Positions 1-27,697 of a DNA stretch of 64,000 nucleotides are shown in pieces. The position numbers and the translations under genes are program-made. Numbering within the stretch: the stretch's first letter is position 1; each line of letters begins with the position of its first letter. This DNA is from Vicinamibacterales bacterium (GTDB taxonomy: Bacteria > Acidobacteriota > Vicinamibacteria > Vicinamibacterales > JAMQPK01). The DNA is taken from assembly GCA_035937795.1 (NCBI GenBank), contig DASZHO010000149.1:5185-69184 (forward strand). Reading direction: 5' to 3'. Below the pieces are notes generated by a model, which was given only the letters and a program-made list of their open reading frames with translations, did no database searches and had not been told where the DNA came from.

Positions 1-220
1 CGGGATGTTCGGCGGCAAACCGGTACGTGGCGCGAATCACCTCGGGCGGGCGCGGCAGCAGCCGGGCGTCGATGTCCGGCAGATGCAGAGCCGGAAGATT
101 CGCCTGCGGATGCGGTGCCAGCTTGGCCGCACGCGGGGCCGCGGGAGCGGCCGACTGTGCGGCGAGGACGGCGGTCAAACCGGCAATCAGCATCGGTAGA
201 ATGATTCGCTTTTCGATCAT
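1..220 (-). CDS. Secreted hypothetical protein, N-terminal part only (gene runs off the left edge)
   Basis: Not in the ORF track because no stop lies in the window. The reverse strand from ATG 220..218 reads MIEKRIILPMLIAGLTAVLAAQSAAPAAPRAAKLAPHPQANLPALHLPDIDARLLPRPPEVIRATYRFAAEHP and stays open to position 1. The N-terminus is hydrophobic and signal-like. The PEVIRATYRFAAEHP stretch resembles the segment preceding the PCYCGC motif of that family, but the motif itself would lie outside the window. Confidence 0.4.
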   Translation of the reverse strand, partial: MIEKRIILPMLIAGLTAVLAAQSAAPAAPRAAKLAPHPQANLPALHLPDIDARLLPRPPEVIRATYRFAAEHP

Positions 221-255
221 GAGACTACAATATACGTCAGCCGAAGGTTTTGCGC

Positions 256-1545
256 ATGCGTCTCAGTGCGATGCTCACGGGTGGGCTGCTTGTCGTGGCC
301 GTCAGTGGTGCCGCCCTCATCGGGCAGCGTCTCGACGTGTTCGTCGCCTCGCGTGATCATCCCGCCATCGATTACAGCAGCGGACCCGTCCGGGATCCGG
401 TCTCGGCATTGAATCGGCGTATCGAGGATGGAGCCGGCCAGCTCGAGTTTGAAGCGACGAGCGGGTATTTGCGGTCCGTGCTCAAGGCGCTCGAGATACC
501 GATCGAATCGCAGGTCGTCGTCTTTTCTCAGACCAGTGAGCAGTCCTCGCAGATAAGCCTCCGCAATCCCCGCGCCATCTTTTTCAACGATAGCGTCATG
601 ATCGGGTGGGTCCGCGGTACCGACCACCTCGAGGTGGCTGCCGGAGACCCGCGGCAAGGTGTGATCTTCTATACGCTCGGCCAGTCGACTGCCGGCAAGC
701 CGGCGTTCAAACGCGACGACACGTGTCTGCAGTGCCACTTGACCTGGGACACCCTCGGTGTGCCGGGAGTCCAGGTCCTCAGCACCTTTCCGATGTCGGA
801 TGACCCGAACGCCTACGCCAGTGGCTTTGTCGCCGATCACCGCAGCCCGTTGGACCAGCGGTGGGGCGGCTGGTACGTGACGGGCAAGTCGGTGCCGATT
901 CGGCACATGGGGAATGTCCCGGTCATTCAGCCGGCGGCGATGTTGGCGAAGGGGCCCGCTCTTCCGCCCAAGCTGGAATCGCTGGCAGGGCAGTTCGATA
1001 CAAAGGCATTTCTCTCCCCTTACAGCGACATCGTCGCGCTGATGGTCCTGGAACACCAGACGCACATGACAAACCTGCTCACGCGCATTGGTTGGGAAAT
1101 GCGCCTCTCGTCTTACGAAGCGCAGAAGACACACGCGAGTGAGGTCACCGATCGCGTTCGCAGCGCGACGCGGGATCTGGTGGATTATCTGCTGTTTGTC
1201 GACGAAACTCCGGTGACGAGTCGCCTCCAGGGCTCCTCGGGTTTCGCCGAGAAATTTTCGGCCGAAGGACCGCGCGACAGCCTGGGGCGGTCCCTGCGCC
1301 AGCTCGATCTCGAGCGCCGGTTGATGCGGTATCCCTGCAGCTACATGATTTACAGCAGTGCTTTCGATGCGTTGCCGGACCTGGCAAAGGACCTCGTCTA
1401 CAAACGGATGTGGCAGATCCTGTCTGGAGAAGAAAAGGAAGCTCCGTATACTCGCCTGTCTCTTGCGGATCGCCAGGCCATCGTCCAGATCCTGCGGGAA
1501 ACCAAAAAAGGGCTGCCCGAGTATTTCCGGCCCCTCACCAGATGA
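256..1545 (+). CDS. Secreted protein with a single CxxCH haem-c attachment motif, function unknown
   Basis: ORF 250..1545 (TTG). The ATG at 256 lies 8 nt after GAAGG. Has a signal-like hydrophobic N-terminus (LTGGLLVVAVSGAALIG) and one CLQCH motif. No further family recognised. Confidence 0.75.
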   Translation: MRLSAMLTGGLLVVAVSGAALIGQRLDVFVASRDHPAIDYSSGPVRDPVSALNRRIEDGAGQLEFEATSGYLRSVLKALEIPIESQVVVFSQTSEQSSQISLRNPRAIFFNDSVMIGWVRGTDHLEVAAGDPRQGVIFYTLGQSTAGKPAFKRDDTCLQCHLTWDTLGVPGVQVLSTFPMSDDPNAYASGFVADHRSPLDQRWGGWYVTGKSVPIRHMGNVPVIQPAAMLAKGPALPPKLESLAGQFDTKAFLSPYSDIVALMVLEHQTHMTNLLTRIGWEMRLSSYEAQKTHASEVTDRVRSATRDLVDYLLFVDETPVTSRLQGSSGFAEKFSAEGPRDSLGRSLRQLDLERRLMRYPCSYMIYSSAFDALPDLAKDLVYKRMWQILSGEEKEAPYTRLSLADRQAIVQILRETKKGLPEYFRPLTR

Positions 1546-1549
1546 CCGC

Positions 1550-2392
1550 TTAGTAATTCGTCGTCCGATCGATCAGGCCGCGCTCGCGGGCACTGTGGTC
1601 GGCCACGCCGAAGACGAACACCGCAGCCACCCCCAGACCCAGCGTCGCGACGGCCAGTATTCCCAGTAACTGAAGATCGCTGAACGCGGAGAGCGTCGGA
1701 AATTCCTGCGCGACGTGACCCACCAGCGCGCGCCGGACGAGTTCCAGCCAGTACGTGATCGGCAAGGCCAGTCCGATCGGCCGCAAGTACCTCGGCAACA
1801 CCTCGAGCGGAAAGATCGCGCCGCTGAAGAGGTACAGGGCGCCGGCCACGGCGTCTCCAATCAGCCACGATTGATGCACGATCACCAGCACCACGCCGGC
1901 AAGCAGCAGTCCCAGCGTCGCAAGCATGACCATTCCGACCGCGAGCGTGGAGAAAAACAGCATCCACCTCACTTCAAGAACATGCACGGTGACATGCAGG
2001 AACAGCACGCCGAAGAGCACCGTGACCAGCACCGAGAGCGAGCCCGTGAGGAACCGCGCCACTCCGCGGCCCACGAGGTACATCCGGATGTCGATTGGCG
2101 CGACGTACACCGACCTCAGCGTTCGATAGCGCTCGCGGTCTTCAATGACGGCGAACGACATGCCCGTCATCACCGCGCCGACGTAGATGTAAAACGCATT
2201 GCCGAGATACATGTACGAAAACGCCGTCGACGCGAAGTCGCTTTTCGTCACCATCGCGTACATCACGACAAGGATCCCGGCCGAGGTCAGCGGCTTGATG
2301 ATCGAGTAGATCGCAAATAGAAACGGATCGGTCCAATTCGATTCGATCTGCCAGCCGAGCCACGCCGCGGTCCTCAGCGAACGCCAGATCAT
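1550..2392 (-). CDS. ABC-2 type transporter permease
   Basis: C-terminal 280 aa of ORF 1550..3127, from MIWRSLRTAAWLGWQIESNW. Multi-pass hydrophobic protein. ATG 2392 overlaps the upstream stop (ATGA at 2389..2392). The Arg-rich N-terminal extension in the track looks like a GC-rich artefact. Confidence 0.85.
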   Translation of the reverse strand: MIWRSLRTAAWLGWQIESNWTDPFLFAIYSIIKPLTSAGILVVMYAMVTKSDFASTAFSYMYLGNAFYIYVGAVMTGMSFAVIEDRERYRTLRSVYVAPIDIRMYLVGRGVARFLTGSLSVLVTVLFGVLFLHVTVHVLEVRWMLFFSTLAVGMVMLATLGLLLAGVVLVIVHQSWLIGDAVAGALYLFSGAIFPLEVLPRYLRPIGLALPITYWLELVRRALVGHVAQEFPTLSAFSDLQLLGILAVATLGLGVAAVFVFGVADHSARERGLIDRTTNY

Positions 2393-3205
2393 GCGCGGCT
2401 CTCCGTCAGCCGGCCTTCCAGGATGGCCAGCCGCTCCATGTGCGTCAACGACAGCCGCGCGGCCACGAGGAACATCACCGAGAGCGCGGCGAGTGCGCCG
2501 GCCTCGGTCCGCACGGGCAGAAATCCGAGGGCGGCGCCGGATGTAAATATGAGTTGCCGCATGGCATCGAGCGCCAGCGTCAGCGGAATCAGCGAGGCGC
2601 CGGCGGCCAGCCAGAAATTGAAGCCGCTGATGGGGAAGTAGGTTCCCGACAGCAGATACACCGGCTCCTGCACGAGGTTGACGATGTGCCAGCCCTCGCG
2701 TCCGAGCAGCAGAAAGAGCGAGGCGAACATCATTCCCATGCCGTAGAGCGCCACGAGCGCGAGCCCGAAGACAGCGAAGAGCAGCGGCAGGCTCGAAATC
2801 GCGTACTGCACGTGAAACAGCCAGCTGCCGATCGCGACGATGGCAAGCGCGCGCAGCGTGGTGCCGAACATGCCGCCGACGGCCATGCCCATCAGAATGG
2901 CCATCAGCGAATTCGGAGCGATGATGTAGAGCGCGAGATTGCCGGTCTCCTTCTCCCAGAACAGCTGGTTGCCCATCGACCACAGCACGTTCAGCCAGAA
3001 GGCGCTCATGGCCCCGCCCAGAATGACGAAGCCGACAAATTCCGGCGGCGCGTGGATCGCTCGGTATACGAACACGTACGCCGACAGCGCGACGAGCGGC
3101 AGCAGGACGTCGAACATGAGCCACCACCGCTCGCGCACGTTGAGAACGAATCGCGGATAGGCCCGCGCGGCGACGGTGCGGACGAACAATCGCCAGCCAG
3201 TGTCG

Positions 3206-3219
<14 letters not shown>
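2389..3219 (-). CDS. ABC-2 type transporter permease
   Basis: ORF 2389..3219, 276 aa, six hydrophobic segments. Overlaps the ATPase gene end by 14 nt and is coupled to the next permease by ATGA. Confidence 0.85.
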
Positions 3220-4222
<1,003 letters not shown>

Positions 4223-4226
4223 TTCG

Positions 4227-4264
4227 TCAGAACACCGCGACATCCTCAGAACACCGTGACATCC
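4227..4264. repeat. 19-bp tandem duplication (one mismatch) spanning the stop codon of the ABC exporter gene
   Basis: tcagaacaccgcgacatcc (4227..4245) is followed by tcagaacaccgtgacatcc (4246..4264). The second copy carries the real stop (tca = TGA on the minus strand at 4246..4248). Confidence 0.9.
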
Positions 4265-6075
4265 TCGACCTCGGATGTCGCGAGAAAGCCGCCGGACTGA
4301 TGCGCCCAGAGCGACGCGTAGAGACCGCCCCGGGTGAGCAGCGCGTCGTGAGAACCCTCCTCGATGATGCCGCCGCGCTCGAGCACGACCAGCCGATCCA
4401 TCCTTTTCACGGTCGAAAGGCGATGCGCGATCACGATCGCGGTGCGCCTCGCCATGAGCGTCCAGAGCGCCTCCTGAATGAGCCCCTCGCTCTCGGAATC
4501 CAGCGAGCTGGTGGCTTCGTCGAGGATCAGGATCGGCGCATCCTTCAAGATCGCGCGCGCGATCGCCACGCGTTGCCGCTGGCCGCCGGACAGTTTGATG
4601 CCCCGTTCGCCCACGAGCGTCTGGTAGCCGCCCGGCAGCGCCTCGATGAATTCGGCGGCATGCGCCAGACCAGCCGCGCGGCGCACCTCCGCGTCGGTTG
4701 CGCCCGGCCGCCCCACACGGATGTTGTCGGCGATCGTGCGGTGAAACATCGACGGATCCTGCGGCACGTATCCAATGGCGCGGCGCAGCGAGGCCTGCGG
4801 CACGCGGTCGATCGGTTGGCCGCCCACGAGGATCTCGCCGCGCTCGACGTCCACGAAACGCAGCAGGAGCCGCGTGAGCGTGGTCTTTCCGCCACCGGAC
4901 CGTCCGACAAGGCCCACCCTTGAATCGGTCTCGATCCGCAGCGAGAAGTTTTCGAAGAGCAGCGGCTGCGCGGGCGAGTAGCGGAAGCTGACGTTGCGCA
5001 GCTCCACCGCGAAGTCGCCGGGCGCGAATGGCTGGCTCTCGACCGGGTCGACGACCGACGGCGGGTCGAGCAGCAATTCGGCGAACTGCGCGGCGTCCGT
5101 CAGCGCCCCTTCGAGGGTGCGGTAGATGTGGTTGAACTCCCACATGACGCGGGTGATCGCCGCGAAGTAGCTGAACGTGATGAAGACCGTCTCGAGACTC
5201 GCTCCCGTGCCGCGGCTGGTCGCGAGTGCCACGACGAGTCCCAGCGTGTTCGTCAGCACGTACATCGGCGACGTCACCAGGTCCACGCGCAGATTCTGGT
5301 AGTCCCACGACCGGAGCGTCTTGGCGCCGTAATCGCCGACGTTTTGCGCGTGGATGCGCGCCTCTTCCGGCTCACGCGCGAATGCGCGCACCGTTTCGGC
5401 GTTGCCGATCGAGTCGGCCACGTGCCCGGCGAGCCTGTTCGACGACTCCTCGCGTATGTCGACCAGTCGCTGGCGGCGGCGGATGAACGGAAACACCATC
5501 GTGAATGTCAGCGAGAGCATCGCCGCCAGGCTCACGATGAGCAGCGGCGAATATCTCCAGAGCACGACCCCGACGAACAGGAGCGGGAGGGCATTCGCGA
5601 CGACCTGGAACGACATCACGTCGAACACGTCCTCGAACCGCCGCGCGTAGCCGAGCGCCCGCTTGGTGAGCGATCCGGCGTAGTTGTCGTGGAAGAACGA
5701 GAGGTCCTTCGCCAGGAGCTCATCCATCGCTTCGATGTAAAGCGCTTCCATCCCGTGGATCTCGGCGCGGGACATGAAGGCGATGGCGATCCGCCAGAGA
5801 ACCTCGCCTGCCAGCCACAGGCCTGAGAACGTGAGCACGTAGGGGGCGAGCTGGGTGGCCGAGAGCCGGTCGTTCCTGGCGAACGCGCCCAGCAGCCGCG
5901 CGATGACGAGCGGCGGCGCATAGAACACCAGCACGTTGCCGATGCCCGGCAACAGCAGCGCGGGCAGCGTGACGGCAGGCCGGCTGCGAATCTGCCGGGC
6001 GTAGCGGCGCACCACCAGCCGGAGCGCCTCGGCCAGGCGTCGAGAATCGCGGGCGTCGTGGGATGTAGCAGTCAT
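4246..6075 (-). CDS. ABC exporter, fused transmembrane and ATP-binding domains (MsbA-like type I exporter)
   Basis: ORF 4246..6075, 609 aa. N-terminal six-helix membrane domain, then Walker [10 protein letters not shown], signature LSGGQRQR and Walker [13 protein letters not shown]. Confidence 0.9.
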
Positions 6076-6086
6076 GAAGCGGTCCC

Positions 6087-6126
6087 AAAAAACAAAAGGG
6101 CCATCACCGCTGGTGGGTGATGGCCC
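6087..6126 (-). terminator. Intrinsic (rho-independent) terminator on the minus strand, 11 nt upstream of the ABC exporter start codon
   Basis: The minus strand reads GGGCCATCACC-CACCAGC-GGTGATGGCCC followed by TTTTGTTTTTT. That is a perfect 11-bp GC-rich stem (6126..6116 / 6108..6098), a 7-nt loop and a T-tract (6097..6087). No minus-strand gene lies upstream of it to terminate. Confidence 0.65.
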
Positions 6127-6174
6127 TTAAGAAGTCGGCTTCTTGTTTCTGGCTACATCACCTGGGGGCGGCCC

Positions 6175-6192
6175 TGTGAACGGTGTGAACGG
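6175..6192. repeat. 9-bp perfect tandem duplication (tgtgaacgg x2)
   Basis: Read directly: 6175..6183 and 6184..6192 are identical. Confidence 0.9.
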
Positions 6193-6306
6193 CGACGTCG
6201 GCGCTCGCGCCGTGGAAATACGGCTGAATCGAGCCAGAGCGCGCCCAGGTGATCATCATCATCAGAAGGTATTAGGAAACCACAGCGCAGCCGATCTGTC
6301 AACACC

Positions 6307-6330
6307 CGCGTGCTATTCCGCGTGCTATTC
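6307..6330. repeat. 12-bp perfect tandem duplication (cgcgtgctattc x2) just upstream of the 929-aa gene
   Basis: Read directly: 6307..6318 and 6319..6330 are identical. It ends 10 nt before the GGAGG Shine-Dalgarno of the gene starting at 6354. Confidence 0.9.
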
Positions 6331-6353
6331 TTCCCTCCACGGAGGCAATTGAA

Positions 6354-9143
6354 ATGGCAACGAGGACCCTGGTCGGCCTGGCGGCGATGGGCGTGGTCTG
6401 TTCGGTGATGGTGGGCCAAGCGCGGGTGACGCGCATCGAGATCGTGAAGGTTGAATCGCCGGCGCCTCCGCCCGCCAACGCGGGTTCCACCGTGTTGCCT
6501 CCCTACGAGCGCATCAGCGGCAAATTCTACGGCGAGCTCGATCCGAAAGACCCGAAAAACGCGCTCATCACCGACATTCAATTTGCCCCGCGTAACGCGC
6601 GCGGCAACGTCGAGTACGTCGGCACCTTTTCGCTGATGAAGCCCATCGACATGTCGAAGGCGAGCGGCGTGTTGATGTACTCGGTCGTGAATCGCGGCGG
6701 CGGCACGGCGGCAGCCAGCGCCGAAGGGCACGTCTCTCTCGTCAGCGGATGGCAGGGCGATGTCGTGCCGACCGCGGCGAATCAAACCATTCAGGTGCCC
6801 CGCGCAAAAAACCCCGACGGCAGCAGCATCACCGGTCCGCTCGTGATTCGCTGGATCGGGCAGAGCGGCAGCACCGCCGCGCTGATCATCCCTCGCGCCA
6901 CGCCGTCGCCTTATCCGCCGGCGACGCTGGACACGGCGAAGGCCACGCTCGTCTCCGCAACCTCTGAGAGCGGCACGGGAGTGAAGAGCGGGCAAGTGAA
7001 GATTGCGAGCAGCGACTGGGCCTTTGCCGACTGTTCGAAGACGCCATTTCCAGGCACGCCGGACCCGGCTCATGTCTGCTTGAAGAACGGATTCAACCCG
7101 GCGCTGCTCTACGAGCTGCAATACACGGTGAAGGATCCGCTCGTGCTTGGTATCGGTTTTGCGGCGACGCGGGACGTGAATGCCTTTTTCCGGTATGAGA
7201 AACAGGACGACGCGGGAACCCCGAACCCGGTGGCTGGAAACATTCGCTGGGCGGTGTCCGAAGGCAGCTCGCAATCGGGAACGTTTCTTCGCGCGTTCAT
7301 CCGCCTCGGCTTCAATCAGGACGAGCGCAACCGCATCGTCTGGGAGGGCAGCAACCCGCACATCGCCGCGCGCGTGCTGGACATGAACCGCCGGTTCGCC
7401 GAGCCTGGTGGAACCATCTCGCTGTACGAGCTCGGGCACGAAGCGCCGGTGTGGTGGGAAGACTGGGACGATACCGCGCGCGGAAGGGGAAAGGCCGGCC
7501 TGCTCGATCGCTGCCGCGCCACCAATACCTGCCCGAAGATCATGGAGACGTTCGGCAGCAGCGAGATCTACGGCCTCCGCGCCTCGTTCATGCTGGTAGG
7601 AACCACCGCGAAGGCCGACATCCCGCTGCCTGAAAATGTGCGCCGCTATTATTTTCCGGGCGTCACCCACGGCGGCGGCCCGGGCGGCTTCAACCAGACG
7701 ACGGCTGCAATCACCAGCGTGTTCGGCGGCTGCGACCTCACGATGAATCCCGCACCCTCGGCGCCGATGCGAACGGCGTTGATGAAGTCGCTCGTCGAGT
7801 GGGTGACCAGGGGTACGCCCATGCCGCCGAGTAAATATCCGACGATCGCCGACGGCACGCTGGTGCCGGACACGAGCGCGGCGATGGGCTTCCCGAATAT
7901 CCCGGGGCGGCCGTCTCCCGACGGGATCGTGTATCCGTTGCTCGACTACGAGCTGGGACCGCACTTCAACTACAAAGATGCGTCGGGTTTCCTCGTGAAA
8001 GTACCCACCATCAAGCAGGTGTTGCCGCAGCTGGTCGTGAAGGTCGACGCGGACGGCAACGAAGTGGCCGGGGTGAAATCACCGCTTCAGATGGCGCCGC
8101 TTGGGACCTACACGGGCTGGAACGTGGTGTCGTCTGGCCCGTTCAAGGGGCAGATGTGCCTCACGGCGTCGCCGGTCGGTGGCTTCATTCCGTTCGCGCG
8201 CTCCAGGGCGGAGCGCGTGGCCAGCGGCGATCCGCGCCTCTCGCTCGAGGAGCGGTACAAGACGCACGATGGATATGTGCAGGCGGTCAGCGCCGCGGCG
8301 AACAAGCTCGTGAAGGATGGCTATCTGCGCCAGTCGGATGCTGATGCCATGATTGCGCAGGCACAGGCAAGCAGCATTCTTCGGCAGGAGAGCCAGACAT
8401 CTGCATCCGCAAAAATGCCGGCGCAGGGTGTCGGCGTCGCGAACATGATCGATCACATTCATCTCGGAGCGCCCGATCCGGTCAAGGCCGTCGAGTGGTA
8501 TCAGAAATATTTCGGCGGCGAGAAGATGGCCGAGGCGACCGACCGGCTGCTGTACGGGCAGGTGCGCGTGATTTTTTCGAAGAACGCGGCGCCGAAGCCC
8601 AGCGAGGGTGGCGTACTCGATATCATCGGGTTCTCGGTGCCCGATCTCGATGCGGCGGTGAAGAAAATGCAGTCCGACGGGGTGACGGTTGTGATGCCGG
8701 TCATGACCATGGACGGCATGAAAGTAGCGCAGGTAACCGATCCGTGGGGAACCCTGATCGAGGTGGTCCAGGATCCGTCGAAGCTCGGCTTGCATCACCT
8801 CTGTCTGCTCTCGCCGGATCCGGCGGCGTCGCTCGCCTGGTTTGCCGATAAATTCGGCGGGAAAGTCGTGAAATACAAGGGCAAGGTCGACGCGATCAAC
8901 TACGGCGGCGTGTGGTTCCTGGGAAAGCAAGGCGACTCGGTGCCCAGCCAGGGGCACGCGATCGATCACATGGGTATGCGCCCGATCAATCTTGAAAACG
9001 TCGTCGCGGGGCTGAAGGCGAAGAACGTGAAGATGCTCACCGAGCCGCGGCCGTTGACCCTCTCGGACGGCACCACCGTGCATCTGGCGTTTGCCGAAGG
9101 GCCCGCCAGCGTCCGGATTGAGCTCGTCGAACGTCCGAATTGA
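6354..9143 (+). CDS. Secreted 929-aa fusion protein: large uncharacterised N-terminal domain (alpha/beta-hydrolase-domain-like family) plus two C-terminal VOC/glyoxalase-type domains
   Basis: ORF 6354..9143 with GGAGG 9 nt upstream and a signal-like N-terminus. The N-terminal ~670 aa (YERISGKFYGELDPKDPKNALITDIQFAP...) resemble proteins usually annotated as alpha/beta hydrolase domain-containing. The last ~250 aa carry two glyoxalase/bleomycin-resistance/dioxygenase-like repeats (IDHIHLGAPDPVKAVEWYQKYFGG and LHHLCLLSPDPAASLAWFADKFGG). Confidence 0.8.
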   Translation: MATRTLVGLAAMGVVCSVMVGQARVTRIEIVKVESPAPPPANAGSTVLPPYERISGKFYGELDPKDPKNALITDIQFAPRNARGNVEYVGTFSLMKPIDMSKASGVLMYSVVNRGGGTAAASAEGHVSLVSGWQGDVVPTAANQTIQVPRAKNPDGSSITGPLVIRWIGQSGSTAALIIPRATPSPYPPATLDTAKATLVSATSESGTGVKSGQVKIASSDWAFADCSKTPFPGTPDPAHVCLKNGFNPALLYELQYTVKDPLVLGIGFAATRDVNAFFRYEKQDDAGTPNPVAGNIRWAVSEGSSQSGTFLRAFIRLGFNQDERNRIVWEGSNPHIAARVLDMNRRFAEPGGTISLYELGHEAPVWWEDWDDTARGRGKAGLLDRCRATNTCPKIMETFGSSEIYGLRASFMLVGTTAKADIPLPENVRRYYFPGVTHGGGPGGFNQTTAAITSVFGGCDLTMNPAPSAPMRTALMKSLVEWVTRGTPMPPSKYPTIADGTLVPDTSAAMGFPNIPGRPSPDGIVYPLLDYELGPHFNYKDASGFLVKVPTIKQVLPQLVVKVDADGNEVAGVKSPLQMAPLGTYTGWNVVSSGPFKGQMCLTASPVGGFIPFARSRAERVASGDPRLSLEERYKTHDGYVQAVSAAANKLVKDGYLRQSDADAMIAQAQASSILRQESQTSASAKMPAQGVGVANMIDHIHLGAPDPVKAVEWYQKYFGGEKMAEATDRLLYGQVRVIFSKNAAPKPSEGGVLDIIGFSVPDLDAAVKKMQSDGVTVVMPVMTMDGMKVAQVTDPWGTLIEVVQDPSKLGLHHLCLLSPDPAASLAWFADKFGGKVVKYKGKVDAINYGGVWFLGKQGDSVPSQGHAIDHMGMRPINLENVVAGLKAKNVKMLTEPRPLTLSDGTTVHLAFAEGPASVRIELVERPN

Positions 9144-10129
9144 TGAACACGATCGAACGGCCGGCCGCCTCCGCGATTCCGCCGCTCAAGCCAGGCCGAA
9201 AAATCGAAGGGATTTCTGCCGTCCTCCTTCCGTACAAATCCGACGATCAGCCGGACTGGGAAGGTTTCCGCCGGCTGCTCGAACGGACGTGGAACGCGGG
9301 GCTCACGCCGGCCGTGAACATGGACACCGGCTACGTGAACCTGCTGACGCCGGCCGAGCGCGAGCGCGCGCTCGGCGAAACCGCAGAGGTGTCGCGGAGC
9401 CGGCGCTTTGTCGCGGGCGCGTTCATTGAAGGCGACGAGGGCGATCCCGCGGTCGCGTATCTCCGGGCCGTGAACGAGATTCGTGCGCGGGGCGGCATTC
9501 CCATTCTCTTCCAGTCGTCGGCGCTCGGCGAATGCAGCGAGCAGGAGGTGCTTGATGCCTACGCGCGTGTGGCCCGGAGCGGCGGCCCGCTGCTCGCCTT
9601 CGAGCTCGGCCGGATGTTCGCGCCGTTCGGGCGAATCTATTCCGACGACTTCTTTCGCCGGCTGCTCGATATCGAAGCCTTCACGGGCCTGAAACATTCG
9701 TCGCTCGATCGCGAGCTCGAATGGCGGCGCCTGCAGATGCGCGATCGTCATCGGCCGGGCTTCAAGGTGTACACCGGGAACGATCTCGCCATCGACATGG
9801 TGTTTTACGGCAGCGACTACCTCCTTGGGCTCTCCGCGTTTGCCGTCGACGCGTTTGCGCTCCGTGATCGGCTCTGGGCGGAAAACGATTCGTCCGCAGT
9901 GGCCCTGAACGATCTGCTGCAGTATCTCGGGCAGCTCGCGTTTCGATCGCCGGTGCCTGCCTACAAGCATTCCGCCGCGCAGTTTCTCAAGCTTCGCGGC
10001 TTCATTACGACCGACCGCCCGCATCCGCGAAGCCCCCGCCGGCCCGATTCGGATATTGCTCTGCTGCGGGACATTCGCGAGCGTCTTGATGCCGATCTCA
10101 CAGCCTTATCCGCGAATCGCATCGCTTAA
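9143..10129 (+). CDS. Dihydrodipicolinate synthase / N-acetylneuraminate lyase (DapA) family class I aldolase-like protein
   Basis: ORF 9140..10129 (TTG). The ATG at 9143 overlaps the upstream TGA by 1 nt. The overall pattern resembles the DapA family, with GLKHSS as a candidate Schiff-base lysine region. Confidence 0.6.
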   Translation: MNTIERPAASAIPPLKPGRKIEGISAVLLPYKSDDQPDWEGFRRLLERTWNAGLTPAVNMDTGYVNLLTPAERERALGETAEVSRSRRFVAGAFIEGDEGDPAVAYLRAVNEIRARGGIPILFQSSALGECSEQEVLDAYARVARSGGPLLAFELGRMFAPFGRIYSDDFFRRLLDIEAFTGLKHSSLDRELEWRRLQMRDRHRPGFKVYTGNDLAIDMVFYGSDYLLGLSAFAVDAFALRDRLWAENDSSAVALNDLLQYLGQLAFRSPVPAYKHSAAQFLKLRGFITTDRPHPRSPRRPDSDIALLRDIRERLDADLTALSANRIA

Positions 10130-11561
10130 GAACCCGAAGGCGTTGCGCGCGCACCTTCAGCGCAGCGGCATCGGTCTGCAGTTCGACGACGAGCGGTCGG
10201 CGCCGGACCGGTCTCCACTCGCCGAGCCTCTGGACGTGGATGGCATCCGCGTCGGCAATCGATTCTGCATTCTGCCGATGGAAGGCTGGGACGGGACGCG
10301 CGATGGCCAGCCAAGCGACCTGACGCGGCGGCGGTGGCGCAACTTCGGCACGAGCGGCGCCAAGCTGGTGTGGGGCGGAGAAGCCGTCGCGGTGCGCCAG
10401 GAAGGCCGCGCCAACCCCAACCAGCTGCTGATGAACGTGCGCACGCAGCCCGCCATCGCCGCTCTGCGCGGCGAGCTGGTGTCATCCCACACGTCGCGCT
10501 TCGGCGCCGGCGCCGACAGCGATCTGTTCATCGGCCTCCAGTTGACGCACTCGGGCAGGTTTGCACGGCCCGACGCGTGGGACCGTCCGGCGCCGCTCGT
10601 CGCCTACCACCATCCCATACTCGATCGGCGATTCGCCGGCGGCGTTCGCGTGCTCACAGACGATGAGCTCGACCACCTTGTCGACGACTTTGTTGACTCG
10701 GCGCGGCTTGCATATTCCGCCGGGTTTCAGTTCGTCGATATCAAGCAATGTCACGGCTATCTCGGCCACGAGCTGCTCGGCGCGCGCACCCGCGCCGGCC
10801 GCTACGGCGGCCCGCTCGAGAACCGCCTGCGGTTTCTTCGGCAGGTCATCGAAGGGATTCACGCCTCGGTGCCGGGATTGATCGTCGGGGTCCGGCTCTC
10901 GATGTTCGACACGGTGCCGTATTGCAAGGGCGAGGGCGGCATCGGCGTGCCCGATCCGTCGAGTGGAACCGAGTCAAGTGGAACCGGGCGGGCCGGCTTC
11001 GGCGTTCTCGATGCCGATGCCGGCCTCGACGAAGCGCTGACCGAGACCCGCGATGCGCTGGCGGTGCTCGAGCGCCTCGGTGTCCGATGGATTTGCACCA
11101 CGGCCGGCAGTCCGTATTACAACCCGCACGTCCAGCGGCCCGCGCTGTTCCCCCCCGTCGACGGCTACGAGCCCCCGGAGGATCCCCTGGCTGGCGTCGC
11201 CCGGCAGATTCAGGCCACAGCCAGGCTCAAGGCGGCATTTCCGAAGATGATATTTGTGGGCTCGGCTTACAGCTATCTGCAGGAATGGCTGCCGCACGTC
11301 GGGCAATACGCCGTGCGCGAAGGCCTCGCCGATTTTGTGGGCCTCGGCCGCCTGGCGCTGTCGTATCCTGGCCTGCCGGCGGATGTGCTGAGCGGCGTGC
11401 CGCTCCGCCGCCAGTCGCTCTGCCGGACGTTCAGTGATTGCACGACCGGCCCGCGCATGGGGCTCGTGTCGGGTTGTTACCCGCTGGATCCGTTTTACGC
11501 GGCGCGGCCCGAAGCCGCGACGGTGAGAAACGTCAGAACGCAGATGCTCGTCAGCGAGTAG
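10089..11561 (+). CDS. NADH:flavin oxidoreductase, Old Yellow Enzyme family
   Basis: ORF 10056..11561; the likely ATG is at 10089 (MPISQPYPRIASLKN). OYE-like motifs: RVGNRFCILPMEGW, GLQLTHSGR, FVDIKQCHGYLGHELL. Confidence 0.8.
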   Translation: MPISQPYPRIASLKNPKALRAHLQRSGIGLQFDDERSAPDRSPLAEPLDVDGIRVGNRFCILPMEGWDGTRDGQPSDLTRRRWRNFGTSGAKLVWGGEAVAVRQEGRANPNQLLMNVRTQPAIAALRGELVSSHTSRFGAGADSDLFIGLQLTHSGRFARPDAWDRPAPLVAYHHPILDRRFAGGVRVLTDDELDHLVDDFVDSARLAYSAGFQFVDIKQCHGYLGHELLGARTRAGRYGGPLENRLRFLRQVIEGIHASVPGLIVGVRLSMFDTVPYCKGEGGIGVPDPSSGTESSGTGRAGFGVLDADAGLDEALTETRDALAVLERLGVRWICTTAGSPYYNPHVQRPALFPPVDGYEPPEDPLAGVARQIQATARLKAAFPKMIFVGSAYSYLQEWLPHVGQYAVREGLADFVGLGRLALSYPGLPADVLSGVPLRRQSLCRTFSDCTTGPRMGLVSGCYPLDPFYAARPEAATVRNVRTQMLVSE

Positions 11562-11570
11562 GAGACGCGA

Positions 11571-12008
11571 ATGAAAAAGCAGATCGTCCTCGTCATATTC
11601 GCGCTGGTCCTTGGCGGCGGATTCGGCCGGATGATGGCCCGGCAGAAGCCCCTTCCCGGCGGCTTCATCGTCGAGCACGATGCCGGCATCGCGAGGGAGG
11701 AGCCGGGCACCCACAATGGCGGCGGCATGACGACGGGTTACTCGTTTTTCTCGAAGGTGCCCAGGCTGGGCCTCGTGTTTCGGAAGCGCGCGTTCCATCC
11801 CGGCTCCGGTATCGGCTACCACCTGCAGACCGAAGACGAGATCTATTACGTGCTGAGCGGAAAAGGCGAGATGACCGTTGACGAGAAGAAATTTGCGGTC
11901 AGCCCGGGAACCGCGATCCTCACGCGGCCCGGCAGCTCGCACGGCCTCAAACAGGTCGGCAGCGAAGATCTGGTGATTCTGATCAACTACGAACAAGCGG
12001 TGAAGTAG
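11571..12008 (+). CDS. Cupin domain protein with N-terminal membrane anchor or signal
   Basis: ORF 11571..12008 with GGAG 7 nt upstream. Cupin motifs: HPGSGIGYHLQTEDEIYYVLSGKGEM and SSHGL. Confidence 0.75.
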   Translation: MKKQIVLVIFALVLGGGFGRMMARQKPLPGGFIVEHDAGIAREEPGTHNGGGMTTGYSFFSKVPRLGLVFRKRAFHPGSGIGYHLQTEDEIYYVLSGKGEMTVDEKKFAVSPGTAILTRPGSSHGLKQVGSEDLVILINYEQAVK

Positions 12009-13267
12009 TGAGCTCGGACAGCACCGGGCGTGCTGGATCGGCTCAGGTAGCCATCACCGCGTTCTTCGCGCTGTTCTCGGTCGTCGGCCTTGCGCTGTAC
12101 GGCTTGCCGCTGTACTACGACTTCATGGTGCGCGAATTCGGCTGGTCGCGCACGATGGTGACCTCGGGCAACGCGGTGAGTAAGCTGGTCGTCGGCCCGC
12201 TCTTCGGCTTCGGCGCCGGCTGGATCGTCGACCGATTCGGCCCGCGGCGTTTGATGATGGCCGGCATCCTGATGGCGGGCATTGCGCTTGTGGGCCTGGG
12301 CGCGATTTCCTCGCTGTGGATGTTCTATCTGTTCTATCTGCTCAACGCGCTCGGCTACGTGAGCGGCGGGCCGCTGCCCAATCAAGTGCTGCTGTCGCGC
12401 TGGTTCGACCGCACGCGCGGAAAGGCAATGGGCTTCGCCTACCTCGGCATCGGCTTCGGCGGCGCGCTCGTGCCGATTCTCGCGAACTTCTTGACTGGGC
12501 GGTTCGGCTGGCGGGGCTCGCTGCAGACGCTGGGCGTACTGGTCGTGGTGATTGCGCTGCCGCTGGCGTATTTCGTGAAAGAGGGCCCCGCAGTCGGTCC
12601 AAAGGCCGAAGCACCTGCCGCTGACCCCGGCCGCGATCGCCGGTCGCTGCCCTCTGTGCGCGGCGTGCTGCGCTCGCCGGCGTTCTACCTGCTGGCGATC
12701 GGCAGCATGTGCTCGATTGCCGCCGTCGGTGGCACCAACCAGCACCTGAAGCTGTTTCTCAGTCTCGATCGCGCCTACTCGCAGGGTGACGCCGCGCGGG
12801 TGATTTCGCTCGTGCTCGCCTTCAGCATCGCCGGCCGGTTGCTGATGGGATGGCTGGCCGATCGGATGCCGAAGAAGTTCGTCATGCTGCTGATTTACCT
12901 GTTGGTGGCTTCATCCGTGCCGCTATTGCTCGTCGGCTCGTCCGAGGCGCCCGTGTATCTGTTTGCCGTGGTCTTCGGTATTGCGCTCGGCGGTGAATAC
13001 ATGATCATTCCGCTGATGGCGGGAGAACTGTTCGGCGTGAACGTGCTGGGGCGTGTGCTCGGCATCGTGTTGACCGCCGATGGCGTGGCGGAGGCCACCG
13101 CACCGATGCTGGTGGGGTTCTTGCGCGATCGCACCGGGGCCTACAACGCCGGGTTTTTCACGCTGATCGGCGCCGCGCTGGCCGGCGCTGTCGCCATTGG
13201 CCTGCTGCCGTCACGGCCGATTGCCGGATCGGACGTCACGCTCGCGCCCCGTCTCGCAACCGATTGA
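12008..13267 (+). CDS. MFS transporter
   Basis: ORF 12008..13267. The GTG start overlaps the upstream TAG by 1 nt. Has 12 hydrophobic segments and an MFS loop motif, GWIVDRFGPRRLMM. Confidence 0.85.
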   Translation: MSSDSTGRAGSAQVAITAFFALFSVVGLALYGLPLYYDFMVREFGWSRTMVTSGNAVSKLVVGPLFGFGAGWIVDRFGPRRLMMAGILMAGIALVGLGAISSLWMFYLFYLLNALGYVSGGPLPNQVLLSRWFDRTRGKAMGFAYLGIGFGGALVPILANFLTGRFGWRGSLQTLGVLVVVIALPLAYFVKEGPAVGPKAEAPAADPGRDRRSLPSVRGVLRSPAFYLLAIGSMCSIAAVGGTNQHLKLFLSLDRAYSQGDAARVISLVLAFSIAGRLLMGWLADRMPKKFVMLLIYLLVASSVPLLLVGSSEAPVYLFAVVFGIALGGEYMIIPLMAGELFGVNVLGRVLGIVLTADGVAEATAPMLVGFLRDRTGAYNAGFFTLIGAALAGAVAIGLLPSRPIAGSDVTLAPRLATD

Positions 13268-13291
13268 GGCGCTCACGTAAAATAGGCCGGG

Positions 13292-14071
13292 ATGGCGCTG
13301 CCGGAACGGCGATTGATGTGCGTGCTCGCCCACCCGGATGACGAGTCGCTGGGGACCGGCGGCACGCTGGCGAAATACGCCGCCGAAGGTGTTGCGACCT
13401 ATCTGGTCACGGCCACGCGCGGCGAGCGTGGCCGTTACTTCGATGGCAAGGAGTCGCCGGGGCCGCAAATCGTTGGAAAAACGCGCGAAGCCGAGCTGCG
13501 GGCCGCCGCGAAGGAGCTCGGCATCCGCGAGGTCTCGTTTCTCGATTACGAAGACGGCAGGCTCGATCGCGCGAATCCTGCCGAGGCCGTCCAGAAAATC
13601 TCGGGGCATCTGCAACGGATCCGGCCCAATATCGTCATCACGTTCGGGCCCGATGGCGCGTACGGTCACCCCGACCACATCGCCATCTCGCAATTTACGG
13701 CTGCCGCCATTGTCGCGGCGGCCCCGGTTCATCAGGTGTCGAAACTGTACGAGATTGCCTGGAGCGAAAAAAAGTGGGCCACTTATCAGAAGGCGCTCCG
13801 TAACCTGTCGACGACAATCGACGGCGTCGTTCGCCAGCCGTCGCCGTGGCCCGATTGGATGTTGACGACGTTCGTCGACACCAGCGCGGTCTGGCCGACC
13901 GTCTGGCGCGCCGTCGCCTGTCACGAGACGCAGATGAGTATCTACAAAAAGCTCGAAAATCTGCTGGATGACGACCATCGCGCGTTGTGGGGCACCCAGG
14001 AGTTCTATCGCGTCTTCAGCCTTGTTAATGGTGGCCGGGCGCGCGAAACGGATTTGTTCGAGGGATTCTGA
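13292..14071 (+). CDS. PIG-L (LmbE) family N-acetylglucosaminyl deacetylase
   Basis: Motifs VLAHPDDESLGTGGTLAKY and AYGHPDHIA are typical of the PIG-L/LmbE family. Confidence 0.85.
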   Translation: MALPERRLMCVLAHPDDESLGTGGTLAKYAAEGVATYLVTATRGERGRYFDGKESPGPQIVGKTREAELRAAAKELGIREVSFLDYEDGRLDRANPAEAVQKISGHLQRIRPNIVITFGPDGAYGHPDHIAISQFTAAAIVAAAPVHQVSKLYEIAWSEKKWATYQKALRNLSTTIDGVVRQPSPWPDWMLTTFVDTSAVWPTVWRAVACHETQMSIYKKLENLLDDDHRALWGTQEFYRVFSLVNGGRARETDLFEGF

Positions 14072-15546
14072 TGAGAGACGCTGCGCTGGCAATGACGGCC
14101 GACGAGTTCCGGGCGCTCGGTCATCGGCTCGTCGATCGCATCGCCGAACATCTCCGGGCACTGCCGCTGCGGCCCGTGGCGTGCGGCGAACCGCCATCCC
14201 ACGTGCGCAACGCGCTTGGAAGCGCTCGAAATCTTCCGAACGACGGCGTCGACGCCGCCCGTGCGCTGACCGAAGCCGCAGACCTGCTGTTCGACCACTC
14301 GACGTTCAACGGCCACCCGCGCTTTCTGGCCTACATCACGTCGAGTCCGGCCCCGATCGGCGTGCTTGGTGATTTTTTGGCGTCGGCCATCAACCAGAAC
14401 ATGGGTGCGTGGAAGCTGGCTCCCATGGCCACGGAAATTGAAGCGCAGACCGTGCGGTGGATTGCCGAGCTCGTTGGATTCCCGTCCGACTGCGGCGGAC
14501 TGCTCGTGAGCGGCGGCAACATGGCGAACTTCGTCTGCTTCCTCGCGGCTCGCGCCGCCAAGGCCGGCTGGGATGTGCGAAAGAGCGGGTTTGCCGGCGA
14601 GTCGCGCTCTCTGGCCGTCTATGCCTCGACCGAAACCCACACGTGGCTTCAGAAAGCCGCGGACCTCTTCGGGCTTGGAACCGACGCCATTCGCTGGATT
14701 GCCGTGGATGGCGGGCAGCGGATGGTGCCGTCGGCGCTTCGCGACAGGATCGCCGACGATCGGTCGCGAGGGATTCGTCCGTTCATGGTCGTCGGCACGG
14801 CCGGTTCGGTGAGCACCGGCGCGGTCGATCCCTTGCCCGAGCTGGCGGAGATTTGTCGTGAGTTCGATCTGTGGTTTCACGTGGATGGGGCGTATGGCGC
14901 CCTCGCGGCCCAGGTGCCGGGCGCCCCCGAGGCCCTCCGCGGCTTGAGCGAGGCGGATTCGGTCGCCGTCGATCCGCATAAATGGTTGTACGCGCCGCTC
15001 GAAGCAGGTTGCGTGCTCCTTCGCCACGCGAAGCATCTGCGGGATGCCTTCTCGTACCATCCTGCTTACTATCATTTTGACGATGACGTGCTGAACTATT
15101 TCGACTATGGGCCGCAGAATTCGCGCGGGTTTCGCGCGCTCAAGGTGTGGCTCGGCCTGCGACAGGCGGGACGTGCGGGATATCTGCAGATGATCGGCGA
15201 CGATATCTCGCTCGCCAGGCGCCTGCACAATCGCCTGCAGAACCGCGAGGATTTCGAAGCAACGTCCCAGAGCTTGAGCGTGACGACGTTTCGCTACGTT
15301 CCCTCCGACCTTCGAGCTCGGTTGGGCTCGCCGGAAGTCGAGCCGTACCTCAACACGCTCAATCAGGAGCTCCTGACGCGCGTGGAGAAAAGCGGCGAGC
15401 TGTTTCTCTCCAACGCGACGATCGGCCAGATGTTCACGCTGCGCGCGTGCATCGTGAACTTCAACACGTCGGCCGAAGACATCGATGCCCTCCCGGAGCT
15501 GCTGTCGCGGTTGGGCCGGCAAGCAGACAAAGCCTTGCGCGCGTAG
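14071..15546 (+). CDS. Pyridoxal-phosphate-dependent group II decarboxylase (aromatic amino acid/glutamate decarboxylase family)
   Basis: The ATG overlaps the upstream TGA by 1 nt. Motifs HPRFLAYITSSP and SVAVDPHKWLYAPLEAGCVL (PLP lysine in DPHKW). Confidence 0.9.
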   Translation: MRDAALAMTADEFRALGHRLVDRIAEHLRALPLRPVACGEPPSHVRNALGSARNLPNDGVDAARALTEAADLLFDHSTFNGHPRFLAYITSSPAPIGVLGDFLASAINQNMGAWKLAPMATEIEAQTVRWIAELVGFPSDCGGLLVSGGNMANFVCFLAARAAKAGWDVRKSGFAGESRSLAVYASTETHTWLQKAADLFGLGTDAIRWIAVDGGQRMVPSALRDRIADDRSRGIRPFMVVGTAGSVSTGAVDPLPELAEICREFDLWFHVDGAYGALAAQVPGAPEALRGLSEADSVAVDPHKWLYAPLEAGCVLLRHAKHLRDAFSYHPAYYHFDDDVLNYFDYGPQNSRGFRALKVWLGLRQAGRAGYLQMIGDDISLARRLHNRLQNREDFEATSQSLSVTTFRYVPSDLRARLGSPEVEPYLNTLNQELLTRVEKSGELFLSNATIGQMFTLRACIVNFNTSAEDIDALPELLSRLGRQADKALRA

Positions 15547-15549
15547 CAG

Positions 15550-17118: not shown

Positions 17119-17128
17119 TATCTGAGCG

Positions 17129-18745: not shown

Positions 18746-18764
18746 GATGATGACCTCCGGAACC

Positions 18765-19139
18765 CTACGTTGAGCCTTGCAGCCGCTCCGAGGCTCGCAG
18801 CAAGGCCTGCCTGAGCATTTCGCGGCCGAACGGCTTGGTGACGTAATCCACGGCGCCCTGCTTGCGCATGCGCATCACCGTTTCCATGTCCTGCGCGCTG
18901 CTGGCCATGATCACGGCCGTTCCCGGCCAGCGCTCCCGCACCTGCTCGGCCAGCCAGATGCCGTCGTGGATCGGCATCATCACATCGCACAGAATGATCG
19001 CGGCCGGCTCGACCGCCATCTGCGCGATCGCGTCGTCGGCGTTGCTGGCGTCCTTCGATTGATATCCCCAACCGGCCAGCCAGCGCATCAGCAGCTTTCT
19101 GATCGACTCTTCATCGTCGACGACGAGAACGTAGGGCAT
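18765..19139 (-). CDS. Stand-alone response regulator receiver domain (CheY-like)
   Basis: 124 aa: VVDDEESIRKLL, phospho-acceptor context ILCDVMMP, and KPF near the C-terminus. No output domain. Confidence 0.9.
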   Translation of the reverse strand: MPYVLVVDDEESIRKLLMRWLAGWGYQSKDASNADDAIAQMAVEPAAIILCDVMMPIHDGIWLAEQVRERWPGTAVIMASSAQDMETVMRMRKQGAVDYVTKPFGREMLRQALLRASERLQGST

Positions 19140-19226
19140 AGGCTAAGACCTGGAGTATTCTACCGCTTCAGGCGCATCCTGATTTTTGAGGTCAGTTAAA
19201 TCAGAAGTTCCGCCCGCACCCCAGTC

Positions 19227-22196: not shown

Positions 22197-22264
22197 TATT
22201 CCACTACTCCCGGTCGTAAAGACTATTACCGACAGCAGGCATTGCAGCGGGGATCTGCGACACG

Positions 22265-25812: not shown

Positions 25813-25910
25813 GGCCGTCGGCCGTCCCCGGCACCCGCCCAGGCGCACGCATCCGCCCAGGCGTATTTGTTGCTTGGAATCTCCTCTAAGTGCCCCCCAG
25901 ATGGGGTTTT

Positions 25911-25934
25911 AGACCGCAGGAGAGACCGCAGGAG
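25911..25934. repeat. 12-bp perfect tandem duplication that doubles a Shine-Dalgarno sequence
   Basis: agaccgcaggag (25911..25922) and agaccgcaggag (25923..25934), followed by atacac and then ATG 25941. Confidence 0.9.
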
Positions 25935-25940
25935 ATACAC

Positions 25941-26523: not shown

Positions 26524-26541
26524 TACCTGTAGGACGTCTAA
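26513..26541 (+). promoter_or_regulatory. ECF-type promoter copy 3: GAAACCG-N16-GTCTAA upstream of the zinc-ribbon ORF
   Basis: gGAAACCG ATAATACCTGTAGGAC GTCTAAGG. Architecture identical to the two copies at the sigma locus. The ATG lies 16 nt after GTCTAA, with AGGAG in between. Confidence 0.55.
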
Positions 26542-26557
26542 GGGAATAGGAGCATTC

Positions 26558-26716
26558 ATGCCAAGACGAACCAGCGCAGCTGTCGGGGTGGTCTGTCCCA
26601 GGTGCGGAATGCTCGCCGCGCGCATAATCGGCCGATCCGAGAGTCTGCCCATCATTTACCTTCAGTGCGAGGACTGCGGCAGAACCTCCGTGGCGCCGAG
26701 CGGCGAGCAGGCCTAA
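26558..26716 (+). CDS. 52-aa zinc-ribbon protein (CxxC-N25-CxxC), absent from the ORF track
   Basis: ATG 26558 lies 5 nt after AGGAG (26548..26552). Translation: MPRRTSAAVGVVCPRCGMLAARIIGRSESLPIIYLQCEDCGRTSVAPSGEQA. Stop TAA at 26714..26716. It has its own ECF-type promoter. Confidence 0.6.
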   Translation: MPRRTSAAVGVVCPRCGMLAARIIGRSESLPIIYLQCEDCGRTSVAPSGEQA

Positions 26717-27655: not shown

Positions 27656-27666
27656 CCGGCACCTGA

Positions 27667-27695: not shown

Positions 27696-27697
27696 GT

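Follow-up and report, generated by a model that had tools for sequence, protein, structure and literature searches.

Export operon and upstream spacer

We analysed a 64,000-nucleotide (nt) stretch of a Vicinamibacterales genome (contig DASZHO010000149.1, hereafter the window), in which a spacer at 6076..6353 separates a four-gene ATP-binding cassette (ABC) export operon on the minus strand (1550..6075), whose genes abut or overlap, from a divergent gene on the plus strand (6354..9143) that encodes an Abhydrolase_10/glyoxalase protein. The operon begins with an ABCB-type exporter, a half-transporter with Pfam matches to ABC_membrane and ABC_tran only (6075..4246, minus strand), followed on the same strand by a DrrA-like ATPase (4243..3206) and by ABC-2 (DrrB-like) permeases (3219..2389 and 2392..1550). 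Read on the minus strand, the spacer carries a promoter-like box, a short open reading frame (ORF), a conserved box around its stop codon and an intrinsic terminator, and comparison with related loci suggests that it is very probably a ribosome-dependent (leader-peptide) transcription attenuator gating the export operon.

An earlier note on this DNA, made from the letters alone, had drawn attention to the terminator and proposed either conditional termination (by a riboswitch, a T-box or peptide-mediated attenuation) or a separate small RNA. The results below support termination that is conditional and placed between the promoter and the operon's first gene; among the alternatives in that note, they fit peptide-mediated attenuation alone. 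A scan for tRNA and tmRNA genes in the spacer returned none, and searches of NCBIfam and the PDB identified no substrate for the exporter, whose resemblance to bacteriocin and type I secretion ABC families is weak and in every case falls short of the family's cut-off. The start codon of the exporter, at which no obvious Shine-Dalgarno sequence had been seen, is in fact preceded at a distance of 7 nt by a weak Shine-Dalgarno-like GGGA (6086..6083 before the ATG at 6075..6073, together 6073..6086, minus strand), and relatives have GGGA, AGGA or GAGGA at this place.

A conserved terminator upstream of the exporter gene

Both direct reading and a terminator scan identified a hairpin at 6096..6128 (minus strand), which consists of AAGGGCCATCACC (6128..6116), the 7-nt loop CACCAGC (6115..6109) and GGTGATGGCCCTT (6108..6096), forms 13 pairs including 8 G-C pairs, and runs into the U-tract TTTTGTTTTTT (6087..6097) of an intrinsic terminator. 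The U-tract is followed by GGGACCGCTTC and then by the exporter ATG (6075), leaving a gap of 11 nt, so that the operon must be transcribed by read-through. This hairpin came out on top of a scan of both strands of the window (-24.4 kcal/mol), confirming that it is the strongest terminator-like structure there, as the earlier note had stated; the next candidates were long irregular folds at -19.8 kcal/mol or weaker, and no second compact strong hairpin with a T-tract was found on either strand of 1..64000. Its predicted fold energy is -24.9 kcal/mol, and its core, GGCCATCACC-N-GGTGATGGCC, occurs a single time in the window and in none of 100 shuffles.

The suggestion that the terminator ends no protein-coding transcript also held, since the right-hand neighbour (6354..9143) lies on the plus strand, divergent from the operon, and no annotated-size gene leads into the hairpin. 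Canonical intrinsic terminators seem to be rare at gene ends in this genome, and because of this apparent rarity the lone clear intrinsic terminator of the window seems to be regulatory.

For comparison, the exporter protein was scanned against one genome per species, yielding 80 loci, mostly from metagenome-assembled genomes (MAGs) labelled Vicinamibacterales or other Acidobacteriota. In an alignment of 34 sequences (A1), 96.2% of the cells at terminator pairs are paired and five pairs show compensatory double changes, for example U-A to G-C in L021, L023 and L070 and G-C to A-U in L024, a level reached by none of the 500 shuffles that served as control. T-runs stand at the matching place in relatives with G+C-rich genomes. 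Folding of the whole spacer is modestly better than that of shuffles (z = -2.25 for the minus strand, -1.99 for the plus strand), as is folding of the relatives' leaders (mean z = -1.86), and RNAalifold run on a MAFFT alignment of whole leaders recovered the terminator alone.

In relatives L017, L020, L025, L026, L028, L050 and L063, the terminator T-tract runs directly into the exporter ATG (..GGCCTTTTTGCTTTTATGACG..) with neither spacer nor Shine-Dalgarno sequence; the exporter starts of this type may be mis-set, or initiation there may be unusual.

Promoter and predicted transcription start

Upstream of the short ORF, the minus strand carries the -35 hexamer TTGACA, which is conserved in related loci; its position is 6297..6302 (6302..6297 as read), not 6296..6291 as the earlier note had it. 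It is followed at 6274..6284 by TGTGG, a TRTG-type extended -10 motif recognised by comparison, and a weak -10-like hexamer, TTTCCT (6279..6274). The arrangement TTGACA-N12-TGTGGTTTCCT is exact at 6274..6302, with a chance expectation of 0.05, and related loci share TTGACA-N12-(T/C)(G/A)TG(G/T)-TYTCCT. A scan with the sigma-70 consensus found no promoter, and the box was recognised solely by comparison. In the wider family the TGTGG is followed by CATAAT, GATAAT or TATCCT, and for this reason we interpret the box as a probable -35 element and a weak -10 element separated by 17 nt, the last of which form a TRTG-type extension.

Between the -10-like hexamer and the start of the short ORF (ATG ATG ATG ATC ACC TGG, from 6262) lies AATACCTTCTG, and transcription is predicted to start at ~6268..6264, a few nucleotides before the ATG at 6262. 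In related leaders the distance from the first base of TTGACA to the ATG or GTG is 35-41 nt, with a single case of 53 nt; the usual range places the start codon 6-12 nt past the -10-like hexamer. The leader start codon would thus lie at or within a few nucleotides of the predicted transcription start, giving a near-leaderless RNA with a 5' untranslated region of ~0-6 nt, and this position would account for the missing Shine-Dalgarno sequence at the leader ORF.

Directly upstream of the -35 hexamer, and ~25 nt from the divergent ATG at 6354, the window carries two perfect tandem copies of a 12-nt unit, GAATAGCACGCG GAATAGCACGCG (minus strand, 6306..6329), a repeat that is absent from the closest relative, L001, and could be an operator common to the two divergent promoters. 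Short tandem repeats (CCCTAAT/CCCCAAT or CAGCCCT/TAAGCCC) also stand just upstream of attenuated promoters, 100-200 nt before the -35 hexamer, in the MAG loci L020, L050, L063, L100, L025 and L028.

A leader ORF with conserved frame and stop

The leader ORF (6158..6262, minus strand) has 34 codons plus a TGA (MMMITWARSGSIQPYFHGASADVAVHTVHRAAPR*) and no Shine-Dalgarno sequence. The earlier note had seen this ORF and correctly reported the missing Shine-Dalgarno sequence; its dismissal of the ORF as weak did not stand, since comparison makes it the key element. Among the 37 promoter-box-bearing leaders compared for start and frame, 33 keep the start position, the frame and the stop, the first ATG or GTG past the promoter box being in frame with the TGA of a GGTGA box and the frame being open. 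ORF lengths in these 33 leaders are 23, 24, 25 (the commonest), 26, 27, 28, 30 and 34 codons, all differences being multiples of 3 nt; three of the remaining leaders end at a TAG two codons further on, and one reads through. The extra length of the window leader, relative to the usual 25-27 codons, comes from an in-frame 9-nt tandem duplication of three codons, GTTCACACC / GTTCACAGG (minus strand, 6175..6192).

The peptide itself is not under purifying selection: close relatives differ by 56 synonymous and 231 non-synonymous codon changes, with 164, 79 and 125 substitutions at codon positions 1, 2 and 3, respectively. The residues that are conserved coincide with paired RNA (Thr4 with ACC; Met14 and Ile17 with AUG/AUC; Arg-Arg with CGC AGG). 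In our view this pattern speaks against a peptide with a function of its own but leaves translation untouched; it suggests that the act of translation is conserved and the peptide product is not, so that the leader ORF is presumably translated.

Stop codons in two frames at the end of the ORF

The ORF ends in a stop box, CCCAGGTGATGTAGCC (6151..6166, minus strand), which includes the leader TGA (6160..6158) and a second-frame TAG (6155..6153). An exact GGTGATGTAGCC is found at 6151..6162 with the leader TGA inside it, the end of the ORF reading CCC AGG TGA TGTAGCC. In 72 of 80 GGTGA platforms a second stop occurs exactly two codons past the GTG of the box, as TAG in 53, TAA in 15 and TGA in 4; the identity of the stop is swapped and its function kept even where a G to A change weakens GCC:GGC pairing, and the intervening codon varies. 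Leaders with a shifted frame (L051, L065 and L181) terminate at the second stop. The constraint on the box appears to be that ribosomes must stop within it and not enter the hairpin.

The idea that the box forms an AUG-UAG start-stop stalling element was dropped: the middle codon is AUG in 58 of the 72 platforms and AGA, AGC, AGG, AUC or AUU in the others, the stop being kept.

An A-rich spacer of 22 nt (6150..6129) leads from the stop box to the terminator and contains a small hairpin, AAGAAG-CCGA-CTTCTT (6129..6144, minus strand), which was seen in the fold, lies inside the loop that the antiterminator would close, and is not conserved in sequence among relatives.

Predicted competing pairings in the leader RNA

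We divided the leader RNA into four segments, namely codons 4-8 (1), the stop box (2) and the two terminator arms (3 and 4). Segment 1, ATCACCTGGGCGCG (6240..6253, minus strand), is the anti-antiterminator strand; over 14 nt it is 93% complementary to 6157..6170, and the long-range helix described in the earlier note is therefore real. As the register of the 1:2 helix varies between subgroups, it was tested through duplex energies in 36 leaders, and the first 11 codons pair more strongly with their cognate ORF end than with non-cognate ones (-20.6 vs -17.5 kcal/mol; permutation p < 1e-4). The folded ORF of the window has an energy of -47.0 kcal/mol. Its middle (6171..6239, minus strand) is variable and structured, with GC-rich hairpins in the fold that match a central hairpin conserved in relatives, the only structure that RNAalifold recovered from 17 gap-free 25-codon leaders; this central hairpin is possibly an RNA polymerase pause hairpin.

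Segment 2 is the antiterminator strand, complementary to the 5' arm of the terminator, and the predicted 2:3 fold has an energy of -17.9 kcal/mol in the window. When the terminator 5' arm was paired with 20-nt windows upstream of it in 36 leaders, the window over the stop box was its best partner in 34 (~-17 vs ~-7 kcal/mol for other windows), and in a fixed register 82% of the cells were paired, compared to 24-44% when the partner was slid. The two positions flanking the 2:3 core pair in 74 and 57 of 87 distinct platforms, where 59.8 and 41.1 were expected, and their partner is segment 2 more often than segment 4. Among antiterminator columns that are otherwise nearly invariant, L001 and L040 share a double change from C-G to U-A at a position that is unpaired in the terminator.

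Distribution among related loci

The full layout precedes the exporter gene in 33 of the 80 loci with an exporter homologue, almost all of them labelled Vicinamibacterales or other Acidobacteriota. In relatives the element that immediately precedes the exporter gene reads (A/C)GGTGA(T/G)xTAGCC, 32-42 nt, AAGGGCCATCACCTG-loop-CAGGTGATGGCCC and a T-run; from element to gene the distance is 11 nt in the window and, in most relatives, 0-60 nt, and the orientation is always the same. A covariance model of stop box and terminator, built from these 33 elements, scored the window at 65.9 bits (E ~3e-14) and recovered exactly the same 33 loci, with no further copy in the 64 kb of the window or in the 3-kb flanks of the 80 loci. 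Gathering homologous upstream regions, as the earlier note had recommended, did reveal conservation, with compensatory pairs in the terminator and almost no covariation in the antiterminator.

Exporter homologues labelled Blastocatellia (L004, L007, L008, L010, L013, L019 and L055) have another conserved upstream region, AACTGGGCATCCGTYGAGCRTTGTGATAAC ... ACCTCAACCTTTTTGCGGCC-ATG, with no stop box or hairpin. The same exporter is evidently under different control in different acidobacterial classes.

The same module at amino-acid and other efflux genes

An exact-pattern scan of metagenomes with the hairpin GGCCATCACC-N3-16-GGTGATGGCC as query, the stop box being outside the query, matched at least 120 contigs. 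Among the matches listed, 62 contigs have a T-rich tail, nearly all of them with the same stop box 33-45 nt upstream, and most of the hairpins listed are not followed by the exporter. The module precedes a prephenate dehydratase gene (pheA, L133) with a Phe-rich leader (VCASTGFFRFRFPMIGF..., ..FFRFRFPMIGF..), a class I aminoacyl-tRNA synthetase gene (L181) with an Ile-rich leader (..ISLISIISAGI..), and several homoserine dehydrogenase (hom) genes whose leaders have many Thr, Ile and Leu codons, such as ..TATQPTATTTS.. (L123). Leaders rich in the cognate amino acid are a hallmark of classical attenuation, and their presence here suggests that attenuation is what this expression platform does.

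The module is also found before genes for DrrA-type ABC ATPases and for major facilitator superfamily (MFS) transporters, with a promoter box and leader of the exporter type, so that the exporter-type leader precedes three different efflux families. The spacer carries a semi-conserved GAUUCRAC-AAGGGCC stretch.

A proposed model for attenuation of the export operon

In the mechanism that we propose, transcription would start a few nucleotides before the ATG at 6262 from TTGACA / TGTGG-TTTCCT, and the 34-codon ORF would be translated from a leaderless or near-leaderless RNA, in which codons 4-8, the stop box CCCAGGUGAUGUAGCC with its UGA, and the two terminator arms would compete for pairing. 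If no ribosome loads, 1:2 would pair, followed by 3:4, and transcription would stop at 6087. A fast first ribosome would reach the UGA and cover segment 2, again leaving 3:4 to form and cause termination. A ribosome that has initiated, melting 1:2, and is then slowed inside the ORF would leave segment 2 free, and the free segment 2 would capture segment 3 (GGUGAUG:CAUCACC plus GCC:GGC) before segment 4 is made, so that no terminator forms and the polymerase reads through into the exporter genes. We infer the direction of the switch from this scheme.

The stops conserved in two frames, together with the cognate-rich leaders of other family members, point to the ribosome as the sensor. The signal read by the exporter copies may be a general slowing of elongation, such as that caused by ribosome-targeting antibiotics or starvation, and not a single amino acid, because exporter leaders have no codon run and their peptide drifts freely; we put this forward tentatively, at somewhat below even chances.

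Several points weigh against attenuation at this locus. The antiterminator columns are nearly invariant, so that support for them comes from conservation and complementarity, about half of the relatives lose two core 2:3 pairs in the fixed register, and the antiterminator is weaker than the terminator (-17.9 vs -24.9 kcal/mol), which means that the model needs kinetic competition, as is usual for attenuators. On the side of expression, TTTCCT makes a poor -10-like hexamer, translation of the leader depends on leaderless initiation because no Shine-Dalgarno sequence stands at its start, and in G+C-rich DNA a frame often stays free of stops for 25 codons, other frames here being open as well; openness alone proves little, and we rejected the length of the stop-free frame as coding evidence. 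No regulatory codon run or enrichment of a specific amino acid was found in the exporter-type leaders, where the enrichment is confined to His, Cys, Thr and Arg and is that expected of any translated G+C-rich structure. Finally, 47 of the 80 homologous exporter loci have no element, and attenuation explains only in part why the stop box and hairpin are so strongly identical in sequence across unrelated operons.

Other explanations of the spacer

A metabolite-binding riboswitch or T-box, in which the helix 6253..6157 would enclose an aptamer and a ligand-stabilised closing stem would sequester the antiterminator strand, would fit a layout that resembles an expression platform, as the 3' strand of the closing helix can also pair with the terminator 5' arm, and would fit the somewhat better folding than shuffles given above. 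Searches of Rfam release 15, judged by gathering thresholds, nevertheless returned no family for either strand of the window spacer (at E <= 10; best hit DapZ with 20.1 bits vs 56) or for 20 related loci (at E <= 1; best hit Thr_leader with 26.2 bits vs 55, in one of these loci). Conserved unpaired nucleotides are missing from the enclosed region, which varies in sequence and in length in 3-nt steps from 23 to 34 codons and shares one short hairpin according to RNAalifold; the fixed start codon, the in-frame TGA and the second-frame stop would have no role, and the members at pheA, synthetase and hom genes have cognate-rich leaders. As the ORF and the alternative pairings explain the conserved features, the riboswitch and T-box readings of the earlier note are highly improbable. 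Antitermination by a trans-acting RNA-binding protein that reads the GGUGAUGUAGCC box or the hairpin, the ORF being incidental, would account for a box and hairpin that are more alike before unrelated operons than base pairing needs, and for the semi-conserved stretch in the spacer; no candidate gene for an RNA-binding regulator lies next to the element, and neither the two-frame stops, which are kept as stops while TAG, TAA and TGA interchange, nor the amino-acid-specific leaders in the family would be expected, which makes this reading quite improbable as well.

The unusual conservation of box and hairpin could also be explained by a common trans partner of an RNA product, and a promoter-like box plus a strong terminator would suit an independent, trans-acting small RNA gene of ~175-180 nt, or a terminated leader with a second job in trans. 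Such activities are known from Sinorhizobium, where both leader peptides and RNAs derived from attenuators have roles in trans (PMC6614838, PMC7298713). The terminated leader RNA of the window may have one too. We consider a small RNA gene unlikely at this locus, since the element always has the same orientation directly upstream of a gene, with no room for a separate operon promoter, and the 11 nt between T-tract and ATG demand read-through; the single copy in the 64 kb and its absence elsewhere in the flanks of the 80 loci point the same way, and a pure small RNA would not explain the conserved reading frame and stops. A short ORF, a hairpin and an ABC exporter are also a common layout of bacteriocin and lantibiotic clusters. 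The ORF could accordingly be a true small-protein gene, whose product (a bacteriocin, a precursor of a ribosomally synthesised and post-translationally modified peptide, or a membrane peptide) would be exported by the ABC system, a leaky terminator setting the stoichiometry of peptide to transporter, and the exporter's weak, below-cut-off similarity to bacteriocin and type I secretion families agrees with this. Such a gene is extremely improbable in view of the substitution pattern (56 vs 231), which leaves the peptide unconserved and its constant residues in paired RNA; there is also no double-glycine leader, no peptidase domain in the exporter and no modification enzyme nearby, the same module stands before pheA, hom and a synthetase gene, and frame-shifted variants that end at the second stop (L051, L065) are tolerated.

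Relation to known attenuators

Classical attenuators control amino-acid operons, such as trp, pheA, thr, leu and his of E. coli, and are represented in Rfam by families such as Thr_leader (RF00506). The element shares with them a promoter-proximal short ORF, mutually exclusive 1:2, 2:3 and 3:4 pairings, a stop codon with which segment 2 begins, an intrinsic terminator shortly ahead of the first structural gene, and, at the pheA, synthetase and hom copies, leaders rich in Phe, Ile and Thr, respectively. Unlike them, it shows no similarity in sequence or model, its leader in the window has no regulatory codon run, its ORF is apparently leaderless, its stop box closes two frames, its box and hairpin are nearly identical across many operons, and its host phylum is Acidobacteriota. 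A missing codon run speaks to the amino-acid subclass, which such runs define, and not to drug-type attenuators such as bmrB.

In B. subtilis, induction of the multidrug ABC exporter encoded by bmrB-bmrCD by ribosome-targeting antibiotics needs translation of the leader, as shown experimentally (PMC4191407), and this is the logic that we propose for the exporter copies. The system resembles the window in placing a short ORF with alternative stem-loops and no amino-acid-specific codon run upstream of an ABCB-type exporter; the bmrB terminator lies, according to that paper, within the coding region, whereas that of the window lies at least 30 nt past the stop codon, and the two differ further in having no sequence relationship, in their hosts (a Firmicute and an acidobacterium) and in the DrrAB-type ABC-2 system that the window operon adds. 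Leaderless short ORFs act as attenuators in mycobacteria, where they are polycysteine and cysteine-sensing (bioRxiv 10.1101/834739; PMC4633059). Both have a regulatory short ORF without a Shine-Dalgarno sequence as first cistron, at or next to the transcript 5' end; the window leader, unlike the mycobacterial ones, is not polycysteine, and its element uses an intrinsic terminator and a clear antiterminator. Term-seq and related work has also revealed antibiotic-responsive attenuators before resistance genes (vmlR, PMC9226507; review PMC5418344). In these cases, as in the window, the leader of an efflux or resistance gene contains an intrinsic terminator that acts prematurely, and in the published cases ribosome stalling on an upstream small ORF relieves it; those examples come from Firmicutes and a few Actinobacteria, each with a sequence of its own, whereas the window element belongs to a sequence-conserved family that also occurs at amino-acid genes. 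For Acidobacteriota, almost no predicted attenuator has an assigned function (Naville and Gautheret, PMC2965389).

What appears new is a family without an Rfam model, with a two-frame stop box and with a box and hairpin that are near-identical across unrelated operons, an identity that might reflect a common trans partner or a cassette spread by duplication. Since the class of mechanism is textbook, the finding offers no new principle; it is of use for annotation and for discovering regulons. Acidobacteriota rank with the most abundant bacteria of soil and are difficult to study genetically. A module whose promoter, leader ORF, stop box and terminator are defined, and which is present in at least 120 metagenome contigs and 33 species-level genomes, makes unannotated leader ORFs annotatable and marks operons under translation-status control.

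A bolder and rather doubtful possibility is that the window element is a copy of a modular attenuator cassette, conserved in sequence and found throughout the Acidobacteriota, which is composed of a leaderless ORF, a two-frame stop box and an almost invariant GGCCAUCACC hairpin, which would be used with cognate codons at amino-acid genes and with none at three or more kinds of efflux gene (ABCB-type, DrrAB-type, MFS), the efflux copies sensing ribosome-targeting antibiotics. If so, efflux pumps of soil bacteria would be wired to translation stress, and copies that respond to such antibiotics would be ready markers of inducible resistance in the soil resistome.

Small ORFs and a second leader type at module-bearing loci

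Downstream of the hairpin, loci L098, L114, L136, L152, L194, L100, L168, L092, L162, L164 and L200 carry acidic ORFs of 49-63 amino acids that end in E(E/P)(A/P)GYG(Y/H)GV*. They sit between the attenuator and a homoserine dehydrogenase gene, or before a 312-amino-acid protein and an alpha/beta-hydrolase-like pair; the two members searched had no Pfam match, and the ORFs look like a conserved unannotated small-protein family.

A second leader type, conserved in its peptide and hydrophobic, MFRGL(A/V)(L/I)(T/R)LVL(T/I)SVGISLPTRTG*, occurs in L092, L100, L109, L116, L157, L160, L168, L173, L186 and L200, where it starts ~9 nt past a TGTGGCATAAT promoter. In contrast to the exporter leaders, this type might combine the role of a leader with that of a functional small peptide.

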